Origin: Cladosporium halotolerans
Taxonomy: Eukaryota
DNA length: 64,000 nucleotides
Assembly (NCBI RefSeq): GCF_011745625.1
Contig: NW_027191468.1
Coordinates: forward strand, 248,001 to 312,000
Reading direction: 5' to 3'
Shown: positions 15,131-17,793 of the stretch, piece after piece
Layout: each line of letters begins with the position of its first letter
Numbering within the stretch: the stretch's first letter is position 1
Translations under genes and position numbers: made by a program
Notes under the pieces: model-generated
Databases searched by the model: none
Told to the model about the DNA's origin: nothing
The model's input: the letters and a program-made list of their open reading frames with translations, nothing else

Positions 15131-15802
15131 CTTATCAATCTAGAGTTTACTGGCCATCTCGCAATGAACGATCCCATAGAAATAGTGTCCCTTCTCCACA
15201 AGACGTTAGTGTTGTTATACTCGGATAGTGGCTTGGGCTCACTACTGTCATTCGTGTAGTAGAAAGCTCTACTATATAGTACATTGAAAGACTGAGCGCT
15301 TACTAAAACTACTTCAGCCTACATCAGCTTTTCTCTTCATTCGTGTCGATATCTTACTTTCACCATCGAAGCTTAGAACATTCTGTAATTCTGTTAAGCA
15401 CGGGGCTTTAAGACAACCGAGCGACCAGGTGACATTGATCGACACATGCGTCTGAACGTCTGCACAACAGCAGTGTCTGAAGCAAAGAAGGGCACAAGTC
15501 CAAAACCACATGCCTACGTTTCAAGACCCGTGATCGACGAACAGCGCAAGGTTGATGCGGCTCTGCGGCCCTGCGACTCGGGACGTCATCGAGATCCTAG
15601 CTCATCTGCAGCGCTGTTCACCCCCACAACCGGCTTCAGCCACAGGATCCGCGTGCGCCGGAAGTCAAGAGCCCGCCAGCCAGCACCAGCCAGCCGGTTG
15701 ACAGGCATCCCTCGCCCGCTCCAACAGCGCCAGTTCTGCGCCGCCACCGCAGCCTCCGCGCCTCCCTCTCCGCTGAACTCCTCTCTCGAGTGCAGCGCAG
15801 CC

Positions 15803-17342
15803 ATGCCGGAGATGGCGCAGCGAGGCGAGTCGCTCACAACAAGCAGCATGAACCGCTCCTCTGCTGTCCCGGCCGCCGAAGACGACGAGGTCGGGCGCGA
15901 CCCGCACATCCCAGGCTCGATCCCTCCGTGGGTGCACATCTCGTCCGACGAGGGCGACACCCTCATCCCACCGCCTGCGCGACCGAACACGCGACACTAT
16001 CGACCGCCACCGTCACACTACAAGCCCGGGCGCAAATGGGACCACATCCGATCCGCCGAGCCTCCTTTGATGAGCGCGCCCATTGCCGACCACCAGACAA
16101 GATGGATACCCTTCATGCAGAGCGGGCCCCATCCGCCCTGGCACGAGCAAGGAGCGAGACTCATGAGCCCTGAGTGGATGGAGGAGAATGTCCCTATTAC
16201 CGTTCGAGGCTGGGAAGAAGAGGACGAGGCATTGGCGGACAAGCAGGAGGAATTGAAGGGGTTCTGGCTCCTGAGCCCTGAAAAGAGAGAACGAACAGTC
16301 CGGCTCTTCTGGGTAAGTCATACTGGCGGCTTTGCCCCAAGCCCTTCCTATTGCCTTGGTCCCAATGCATTGCGACGAGCACGGCGGGTCTGCCGCGACC
16401 GTGCTTTACCGTCGCATCCGCCGGTGAGCGTCGGCGATGCTGCAGCGGAACGATCAGCGCAGAAGTGGAGCGCTTGGCGCACAAGGCACATAATCGTCCG
16501 CCGGCTTCCCACCATCATCGATCTAGCAGCTTTAGCTCACATGGGAGAGCGCCAGACTGAAGTAACACTTCATGTCAAAATAAGCATTCTGTGCGGTATC
16601 TGGAGGTACTGTGTTCGATCCACAGAAGCTGCATCGTTGATCTTTTGCCTTTTTGTTTTCCCTTTTGCTCTGGCACTGTTCTACACGTTGTCATCTGGTC
16701 TCGACTACATTCCTGAACATCACTGACAAGCTTTGCAGAGGTTGTTGCTCAAGAATCCTTTTGTGCCATTGCTCTTCCGAATCGTTGTACTGGCATTTTC
16801 CGGCGCATCTTTAGGTCTTTCAGCGACATTGTACGAAAACATTCGTCGAGTGAACACAGATCGGGATCCAGACAATCAATGTGCAGCTCGTGCTTCAACG
16901 TACATGGCAATCGTCGTTGGCTCTGTTGCGATCCCGTACGTGCTTTACGTGACTTGGGACGAATACATGAGCAGACCGTAAGTTTCATATCGACTTCCCG
17001 ATCGCTTCACTTACAAGTCTAGGCTAACGACTCTGCAGCCTCGGTCTTCGATCTGCTGTGGCTAAGACCTCACTCCTTCTATGTGATCTATATTTCATCG
17101 TCTTCTCTGCCTCGAATTTGTCCCTAGCGTTTGATGCCTTGTTCGATCGACGATGGGCATGCTACGACGAGCGCTACTCTATCGCCGGGTCTGAAACCAT
17201 CCGTATCCCCGCGACATGTCCCGACAACCCGGGCATTTGCTACAAGCAAAAAGCGTTGGGCGGCGTGCTGGTCATCAGTCTCGTGGCCTGGTTGGCGACG
17301 TTCAGCATCTCCGTCATGAGAGTCGTGGAGAAGCTGCGATAG
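15803..17342 (+). CDS. SRF1: Srf1-like regulator of phospholipase D (multi-pass membrane protein); exons 15803-16312, 16739-16977, 17039-17342
   Basis: LLKNPFVPLLFRIVV...VTWDEYMSRPLGLRS...LLCDLYFIVFSASNLSLAF...FSISVMRVVEKL matches the Srf1 family as I recall it. Introns 16313-16738 and 16978-17038 are GT-AG and in phase. Confidence 0.8.
16526..16633 (+). tRNA. tRNA-Phe(GAA) with a 35-nt intron (16563-16597), nested in SRF1 intron 1
   Basis: Full cloverleaf: acceptor GCAGCTT/AAGCTGC+A73, D stem GCTC/GAGC, anticodon stem CCAGA/TCTGG with CT-GAA-G, intron at canonical 37/38 containing CTTCA complementary to the anticodon loop, T arm CTGTG-TTCGATC-CACAG. Closely resembles yeast tRNA-Phe. Confidence 0.95.
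16643..16654 (+). terminator. Pol III oligo-T terminator of tRNA-Phe
   Basis: T4 (16643-16646) and T5 (16650-16654) runs 10-21 nt downstream of the tRNA 3' end. Confidence 0.7.
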
Positions 17343-17793
17343 GATGTCTGCTTCTTTGTACAACTTTGGGGTTTGACGCGCTTCTTATTTCTTTGGGTTA
17401 TCGGATCTTGTCGCATTGGAAAAGGAAAGGGATAGCATTGCGTCGGCGTTTGGGTCTGTCAGCTTTACCGGCGGCAATCAAAATCACTTGGATGATTGCG
17501 TGCATTTGGAATGGGGTTTTCTTTGAATGGCTGGGATGGGACGGGATGATTTAAGTGACGATACCCTGTTTGATACATAGCCTGGGCGCAAAAGCGCGAT
17601 ACTGCCGCCGATTGGACATGTAGCATTGAAAAAACATAACGTATTGACTGTGCTGCCTTGTCACGCTGTTTGCGAAGAACCAGGTCCAGCCGCATCAATC
17701 ATGACCTGACCTCACACCTCGCATGGGCACGCATGCAGCGTGGCGGCCAGCGCGGCGGCTCAGCCCAACCGCGGGCCACCTTCCCTTGCGCAG

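Follow-up and report, generated by a model that had tools for sequence, protein, structure and literature searches.

When a gene for a transfer RNA (tRNA) lies in an intron of a gene that codes for a protein and on the same strand, is it a transcription unit of its own or a product of its host's transcript? The question is raised by a stretch of 64,000 nucleotides (nt) from the filamentous fungus Cladosporium halotolerans (RefSeq assembly GCF_011745625.1, contig NW_027191468.1, positions 248,001 to 312,000 of the forward strand), the whole of which we call the window and number from its first letter. An earlier note had placed a tRNA-Phe gene with an intron of its own inside intron 1 of a gene that it named SRF1. 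We report here that intron 1 is genuinely removed from the host messenger RNA (mRNA) by the spliceosome, and that the tRNA is intronic. The tRNA itself is probably a functional nuclear tRNA-Phe(GAA) with its own RNA polymerase III (Pol III) unit, nested in the sense orientation in intron 1 of a gene for an SRF1-like membrane protein. Copies of the same tRNA in a sister clade carry a further insert that resembles an mRNA-type intron, and these copies make production from the RNA polymerase II (Pol II) transcript of the host a serious alternative.

The tRNA-Phe gene and its host intron

Contigs of four public runs (X1, X2, X4 and X15) were mapped on positions 15600–17600. One contig each of X2 and X4, which come from two studies, joins 16312 to 16739, skipping 426 nt with GT..AG ends (sides of 29 and 110 nt), and one contig each of the same runs joins 16977 to 17039, skipping 61 nt that also begin with GT and end with AG (sides of 240 and 96 nt). 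Neither intron is skipped in X1 or X15, both of which look genomic. None of the runs is on record as RNA, and their RNA label is a guess; our sole ground for treating X2 and X4 as RNA-derived is that the two introns are missing from their contigs to the exact base. X4 has no cover of 16337–16470, and contigs differ in depth; neither of these features was used as evidence. X2 also has an unspliced contig (16283–16611), such that spliced and unspliced contigs are found together in this run.

The host gene has three exons on the + strand (15803–17342; Table 1), and its homologues are continuous where intron 1 interrupts it. In one protein alignment (A1) six full-length homologues run unbroken across the junction of exon 1 and exon 2, and in a second (A2) W170, R171 and L174–N176 are invariant in 18 full-length homologues. 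The exceptions in A1, P0004 and P0006, are read-through predictions from gene callers that ignore introns.

The frame of exon 1 is open through 137 codons of intron 1, over the tRNA, as far as a TGA in the branch site (15446–16726 of the window), and the public gene call P0004 is a read-through of this kind. The frame is closed earlier, by a stop at codon 5 to 95, in every other tRNA-bearing intron that was examined, and the open frame is therefore treated as chance.

When run so as to permit introns, aragorn reports a single tRNA in the window, a tRNA-Phe(gaa) at 16526–16633 on the + strand with a 35-nt intron, and a narrow search with the Rfam tRNA model RF00005 gives identical coordinates at 48.7 bits (gathering score 29; E = 7e-10). 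ARAGORN in default mode (0 genes) and Rfam at the gathering threshold (0 matches) reported nothing in the whole window. These default scans missed the tRNA because of its intron, and intron-containing tRNAs in eukaryotic windows are under-called by both. The anticodon, GAA, belongs to a loop of 7 nt, and the intron begins one base to its 3' side; aragorn puts the intron at 38/39, one base further on, and the canonical 37/38 fits the letters equally well. The predicted Pol III signals are in place, with a box A of sequence TAGCTCACATGG and with box B and the four T-runs as listed in Table 1. Exon-only sequence of two relatives, L042 and L045, whose exons are identical to those of the window, folds in RNAfold into a cloverleaf at -25.4 kcal/mol.

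The two long contigs of X15 (73.8 and 15.9 kb) end inside the tRNA, other flanks are seen as loose ends at 16524–16526 and 16634, and a variant of 103 nt, whose tRNA intron is shorter by about 5 nt, reaches a depth of 147 in X15 as against 34 for the flanks. Thus tRNA-Phe is a family of several copies, and the intron of the copy in the window is distinguishable. The conserved block upstream of the tRNA (AAGTGGAGC.CTTGGC..ACAAG) is absent from the upstream flanks of the other tRNA-Phe copies that are seen as loose ends.

At 16604–16634 two contigs of X2, of 1713 and 1490 nt and with depths of 152 and 262, adjoin the final 30 nt of tRNA-Phe copies other than this one. Such copies may also lie in or beside strongly expressed transcripts.

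The anatomy given in the earlier note is borne out by these results. Intron 1 has the length and place assigned to it, starting with GTAAGT and ending with CAG, and the joints of X2 and X4 confirm both this and the same-strand nesting in an SRF1-like intron; the tRNA-Phe(GAA), complete and with its 35-nt intron, is upheld by aragorn and by the Rfam score; and the T-runs downstream of it and the CACTGAC branch site can be read in the sequence, with ACT[GA]AC present in seven of seven lineages. The statement that most other introns here are about 50–120 nt long was checked for intron 2 (61 nt) and for the same site in two tRNA-free relatives (59 and about 61 nt), with which it agrees.

The name SRF1 fared less well. 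A protein search with exon 1 against longer proteins gave 41 matches at E <=0.001 among 1027 candidates, the best named of which is a 350-amino-acid protein of Cladosporium sp. NU13 with 88% identity, and 'regulator of phospholipase D SRF1' is the name given by their sources to several homologues, including those of Fulvia fulva and Septoria linicola. No Pfam family matches the pieces of the host protein or two full-length homologues, and SRF1 thus appears to be a borrowed name that goes back only to the source-given names of homologues.

Table 1. Features of the SRF1-like gene and of the nested tRNA-Phe gene, in positions of the window
Feature	Position	Strand	Remarks
Exon 1 of SRF1-like gene	15803..16312	+	170 codons, end ...RTVRLFW; covered by X2 and X4 contigs
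Intron 1 (spliceosomal, host of the tRNA)	16313..16738	+	426 nt, GTAAGT...CACTGAC...CAG; joints in X2 and X4, continuity of homologues
Conserved upstream block	16463..16485	+	-63 to -41 of tRNA; from alignment of 7 Cladosporium-like introns
TATA-like element ATAAT	16490..16494	+	-36 to -32 of tRNA; putative role
tRNA-Phe 5' exon	16526..16562	+	nt 1–37; box A about 16533–16544; anticodon GAA 16559–16561
tRNA intron	16563..16597	+	35 nt, canonical 37/38 position; contains CTTCA, complementary to anticodon region
tRNA-Phe 3' exon	16598..16633	+	nt 38–73; box B GTTCGATCC 16613–16621; discriminator A 16633
Four T-runs (T4, T5, T4, T4), Pol III terminator-like	16643–46, 16650–54, 16656–59, 16663–66	+	10–33 nt 3' of tRNA
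Branch site CACTGAC (16721–27) and 3' splice site CAG of intron 1	16721..16738	+	ACT[GA]AC core and terminal AG in 7 of 7 aligned lineages
Exon 2	16739..16977	+	start RLLLKNPF...; translation, homologue alignment, contigs
Intron 2	16978..17038	+	61 nt, GTAAGT...GCTAAC...CAG; GT..AG joint in X2 and X4
Exon 3, ending at stop codon	17039..17342	+	translation, homologue alignment, contigs

The tRNA and its host intron in related fungi

Metagenome contigs were scanned with the alignment of 18 homologues (A2), which gave 55 loci (213,709 bases) that were sorted by means of tblastn and aragorn tables. A long intron (349–803 nt) is present at residue 170/171, the site of intron 1 in the window, in 16 of the 55 loci, and a short, tRNA-free intron is present there in L020 (59 nt) and L052 (about 61 nt). 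Seven loci have an intron elsewhere but none at 170/171 (L010, L016, L024, L027, L053, L054 and L055), and 18 have no intron anywhere in the match, being either DNA or complementary DNA. Exon 1 is not reached in the other 12, among which L023 and L031 start in intron 1 and have the tRNA-Phe.

Inside the long intron aragorn reports a + strand tRNA in 12 of the 16 loci, albeit with different identities: tRNA-Cys(gca)-like in L013, L014 and L015, Phe in L018 and L021, Ile in L019, and Ala in L030, L032, L033, L035, L036 and L037. Four loci have no call (L042, L045, L046 and L048). The Ile and Ala calls were rejected as artefacts of aragorn's intron placement; all of these loci hold the exact 21-nt core of the anticodon arm with GAA. 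This 5'-exon core is found in 15 of the 55 loci, in or after intron 1 of the SRF1-like gene, in all cases on the host strand and in none on the opposite strand, and wherever exon 1 is present the tRNA stands between exon 1 and exon 2. Nowhere else in the 55 loci was a tRNA found, nor did the opposite strand yield one. The tRNA-Phe that the earlier note proposed to look for in the orthologous intron of related fungi is thus there, and in a protein tree the lineages that bear it form two sister clades (88/92), each with a support of 99–100. One of these is Cladosporium-like (100/100) and has the window inside it; in the other, L042 groups with L045/L048 (99/98).

Seven Cladosporium-like introns (the window, L018, L019, L021, L030, L032 and L035) were aligned, and mean pairwise identity was determined by segment. 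It is 0.52 in the 5' part of the host intron, 0.75 in the 63 positions upstream of the tRNA (-63 to -1) and 0.98 in the tRNA 5' exon; it is 0.76 in the tRNA intron and again 0.98 in the 3' exon, and it falls to 0.55 in the trailer and 0.32 in the 3' part of the host intron. Two pairs of the acceptor stem show compensatory changes: at 3:70 the window has A-T where the six relatives have C-G, and at 6:67 L032 alone has C-G and the others T-A. A T-run of at least four residues is present in 12 of the 12 loci (of 55) with an exact 3'-exon core, starting 8–14 nt into the downstream stretch begun near the tRNA end. An A/T-rich, TATA-like element occurs at -36 to -30 in 11 of 11 tabulated sequences and is stronger in the lineages with the D-loop insert described below. 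Judged from the sequences, conservation is as one would expect if a working tRNA gene, equipped with Pol III signals of its own, lay in an otherwise freely drifting intron, and the pairing of tRNA and host intron would be at least as old as the common ancestor of the Cladosporium-like and sister clades.

One locus has a different form. L004:1-746 starts inside the T-arm of the tRNA, keeps the last 206 nt of intron 1 and is without intron 2, and it is either a partly spliced transcript that runs through the tRNA and the T-runs or a lineage that has no intron 2.

A second tRNA gene occupies the same site in an Extremus-like relative. L013:2016-2100 (and likewise L014 and L015) is a tRNA-Cys(GCA)-like gene on the + strand, in a 349-nt intron at the site of the window's intron 1, and is found there instead of the tRNA-Phe, by either a separate insertion or a replacement. 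The host protein of these three loci is 94% identical to a protein of Extremus antarcticus and belongs to a different major clade. The Cys-like gene has U at position 73 and C at position 33, where U is usual; its intron is 10 nt long, a T6 run stands 8 nt downstream of the gene, and in L013 it scores 39.0 bits on the Rfam tRNA model in the narrow search only. No similarity could be detected between the L013-type intron and the Cladosporium-type intron.

An insert in the D-loop of the sister-clade copies

The four long-intron loci without an aragorn call make up the sister-clade set, with host introns of 743 nt (L042) and 803 nt (L045, L046 and L048) and, by blastx, a host protein 75–77% identical to that of Cladosporium. 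A blastn search with the window tRNA finds the tRNA in these loci as three pieces, nt 1–16, 17–37 and 64–108, each 100% identical. Between nt 16 and 17, in the D-loop, lies an insert of 56 nt that splits box A (L042:1108-1268; L045:839-994; also in L046 and L048). Removal of the insert restores the tRNA exactly, with 73 of 73 exon bases identical to those of the tRNA in the window. The intron at 37/38 and the T-runs are kept in these copies, along with a stronger TATA (TATAAA or TATATTT at -36 to -30). When the whole loci L013, L018, L042 and L045 were searched with Rfam at E up to 1, only the tRNA of L018 was reported; those of L042 and L045 were found by neither Rfam nor aragorn, and by blastn with the window tRNA only.

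We took as criteria of a spliceosomal intron a GT at the 5' end, a YTRAC branch site 8–25 nt from the 3' end, a YAG end and a length typical of the organism, and all four are found in the insert. It starts with GTAAGA and has GATTAAC (L042) or GCTAAC (L045, L046 and L048), followed by 10 nt that end in CAG; intron 2 of the window shares this layout (GCTAAC plus 10 nt). The pattern GTRAG...YTRAC...YAG is found in 12 of the 421,258 56-mers of the loci, a set that includes real introns. The insert is not an assembly artefact, since it is present in four contigs from three assemblies and differs at two bases between L048 and L045.

Comparison of L042 with L045 shows tRNA exons that are identical throughout (16/16, 21/21 and 36/36), whereas identity is 45 of 57 columns in the D-loop insert, 25 of 32 in the tRNA intron, 57 of 102 in the 100 nt upstream and 66 of 111 in the 100 nt downstream. 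Identical exons amid such diverged flanks indicate that purifying selection has acted on the interrupted gene ever since the insert appeared, in an ancestor shared by L042 and L045.

Two other descriptions of the insert were considered. An intron of the bulge-helix-bulge type, with its two cut sites in 3-nt bulges on either side of a 4-bp helix, was rejected; no such motif is present in the minimum-energy folds, and the GUAA at the intron start cannot pair with the GGGA of the 3' exon beside the D-stem. As for an introner family with repeated copies, the insert was compared by blastn with the window and all 55 loci, and matched its own copies and, by chance, stretches of 12–19 nt, in a set far too small to exclude one. 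The insert looks like a spliceosomal intron inside a tRNA gene, as far as its sequence can tell, and a literature search that was thin on subscription journals found no report of such a case.

Production of the tRNA and its parallels

The reading that we favour is the conventional one, in which the copy in the window is presumably transcribed by Pol III. TFIIIC would bind boxes A and B and TFIIIB the -36 element, transcription would stop in the T-runs, and maturation, as for other tRNA-Phe copies, would fall to RNase P, RNase Z, the tRNA endonuclease and a ligase. The SRF1 pre-mRNA is made by Pol II across the same DNA, and the 426-nt intron is spliced out of it. We regard Pol III as the main route because every lineage has conserved both the TATA-like element and the T-runs. 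The pairing would have been kept because the tRNA copy is under selection, with the intron as a tolerated site. Cross-talk with SRF1, in the form of Pol II/Pol III interference or of cleavage of unspliced pre-mRNA at the tRNA, would be plausible. The earlier note's main proposal, in which processing by RNase P, RNase Z and TSEN may compete with splicing and so limit the output of SRF1, would be of this kind; what the contigs show is that spliced and unspliced forms occur together in X2 and that transcripts or DNA span the tRNA and its T-runs.

Several points weigh against this account. We infer the expression of the copy in the window from conservation only, and boxes A and B and the upstream TATA are putative signals. 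The X2 contig 16283–16611 and an X4 contig (16476–16696) pass from host sequence into the tRNA or across it and past the first T-runs, which reflects either Pol II read-through of the tRNA or DNA in X2 and X4. Furthermore, box A of the sister-clade copies is split by a spliceosomal-type intron and their exons are still perfect, a combination that is hard to square with a purely conventional Pol III route in that clade.

The alternative that survives best, although we think it unlikely, is that the tRNA comes partly or mainly from the Pol II transcript of its host. The SRF1 pre-mRNA or the excised intron would fold, and RNase P and RNase Z would cut out the tRNA, in the manner of intronic small nucleolar RNAs (snoRNAs) or of the insect RNase P RNA; the output of tRNA would then depend on transcription of SRF1, and any SRF1 pre-mRNA cut ahead of splicing would be lost. 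The sense orientation in 15 of 15 loci with the Phe core, and also of the Cys-like gene of L013–L015, is in keeping with this, although two independent insertions would both be in sense by a chance of 1 in 4 if orientation were random. So are the contigs that run from host sequence into or over the tRNA, and L004, with its start in the T-arm and its 206 nt of retained intron 1 without intron 2. What makes the alternative serious is the sister clade, because an intron of mRNA type inside a tRNA gene calls for the spliceosome, and the spliceosome normally acts on Pol II transcripts. The 56-nt GT..AG insert there splits box A, yet L042 and L045 do not differ at any of the 73 exon bases, which gives indirect comparative support. 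However, no lineage has lost the T-runs or the -36 TATA-like element, not even those with the insert, where they lie >250 nt from the host 3' splice site, and this points to Pol III.

Neither is the insert alone a proof of Pol II origin. U6 small nuclear RNA genes of fission yeast and other yeasts are reported to have mRNA-type introns (Tani and Ohshima 1989, 1991; via PMC5855946), and ascomycete ribosomal DNA (rDNA) has spliceosomal introns, which lichen fungi remove from their RNA polymerase I (Pol I) transcripts, as does even a yeast that has been given such an intron from a lichen (PMC8527467); in other fungi spliceosomal introns are thus lost from transcripts of Pol III (U6) as well as of Pol I (rDNA) (PMC5855946, PMC8527467). 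These introns resemble the insert of L042, L045, L046 and L048 in that GT..AG ends and a branch site interrupt the gene of a structural RNA. They differ in that the interrupted gene of the sister clade is a tRNA gene, keeps its normal tRNA intron and sits in a Pol II intron, and in that splicing of its insert is a prediction. Release of a tRNA from an intron is called possible and 'fascinating to study' by Sagi et al., who describe it as unstudied (PMC4999229).

A more far-reaching proposal, which we make tentatively and with the balance tilting a little against it, is that the spliceosome takes part in making the nested tRNA-Phe. The insert of the sister clade would then be a true mRNA-type intron, the first reported in a tRNA gene, and the tRNA would either be a product of Pol II, matured from the SRF1 pre-mRNA or intron, or derive from a transcript that Pol III makes and that is spliced like fission-yeast U6. 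The copy in the window would also be partly fed by its host, and the supply of tRNA-Phe would be coupled to SRF1 expression.

It is much less probable that the nested copy is no longer used as a tRNA, and is instead a pseudogene carried along as a passenger, or serves, as an RNA of tRNA shape or as DNA to which TFIIIC binds, to modulate the splicing or transcription of SRF1. There is precedent in the human nuclear intronic tRNA look-alikes of mitochondrial origin termed nimtRNAs, whose cloverleaf promotes splicing and which do not undergo tRNA processing (PMC7722341). An aid to splicing could matter for a host intron of 349–803 nt with the tRNA, as against 59 and about 61 nt without it, and the block at -63 to -41 is locus-specific and conserved. 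However, conservation covers the whole mature tRNA and goes beyond the fold to the anticodon loop, the pairing of intron and anticodon and the discriminator base, and in addition the acceptor stem shows compensatory changes and the exons match a multi-copy family; a structural or DNA-binding role would not need all these features. Finally, that the tRNA is intergenic and 15803–16312 and 16739–17342 are two separate genes, an outcome that the earlier note had named as fatal to its proposal, is virtually impossible, since contigs of two runs join 16312 to 16739 exactly at GT..AG and the six A1 homologues and the invariant residues of A2 are continuous over the junction, with nothing found on the other side apart from the read-through protein P0004.

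The nesting of a tRNA in an intron is already known, for example in Caenorhabditis elegans, and the window is a further case in a little-described group. In C. elegans 44–47% of tRNA genes are intronic, no more than expected by chance, and in Caenorhabditis the host promoter affects the intronic tRNA, and Pol III occupancy is lower at same-strand ones (Sagi et al. 2016, PMC4999229). As in the window, these tRNAs lie in introns of protein genes and tRNA-host pairings are conserved between species; the window differs in belonging to a filamentous fungus with introns of about 60 nt, in having a sole tRNA in 64 kb, and in the tRNA's own intron. A Zymoseptoria study dropped introns with predictions of tRNA or non-coding RNA from its set of verified introns (PMC5647799), and our literature search found no paper on nuclear intronic tRNA genes in the Pezizomycotina.

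Other parallels are more partial. The RNase P RNA of insects and crustaceans is embedded in a Pol II intron and has lost its Pol III signals, (PMC4287351, PMC6797745), whereas the tRNA in the window still has its boxes A and B as well as its TATA-like element and T-runs. A promoterless, intron-derived RNA of the snoRNA, mirtron or insect RNase P RNA type was accordingly rejected for the window; the tRNA is on the same strand as its host, as such an RNA would be, but these signals are present and conserved. The ectopic tRNA introns of Cyanidioschyzon merolae are, like the D-loop insert, second introns outside 37/38 in nuclear tRNA genes, but they are cut at a bulge-helix-bulge by the tRNA endonuclease (PMC3728597), whereas the insert is without such a motif and has spliceosomal signals. 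Human nimtRNAs (PMC7722341) and the tRNA-like RNA of Arabidopsis GUT15 (PMC6152437) are also tRNA-shaped RNAs in a Pol II intron that interact with splicing or are released. They are look-alikes without Pol III autonomy or decoding; the window has a standard tRNA-Phe with exons identical to those of other copies.

Nested tRNA genes are routine in animals and hardly described in filamentous fungi, whose introns are about 60 nt long. A case that has been conserved for long in the same host, the same intron and on the same strand is a good system in which to study how Pol II and Pol III share DNA and whether tRNA excision competes with splicing. The copies of the sister clade matter more. Should their insert prove to be spliced, there would be a tRNA that the spliceosome is needed to make, and the production of a tRNA from a Pol II intron would become directly testable in a natural construct; location in a Pol II transcript would then be what exposes a Pol III gene to the gain of an intron.

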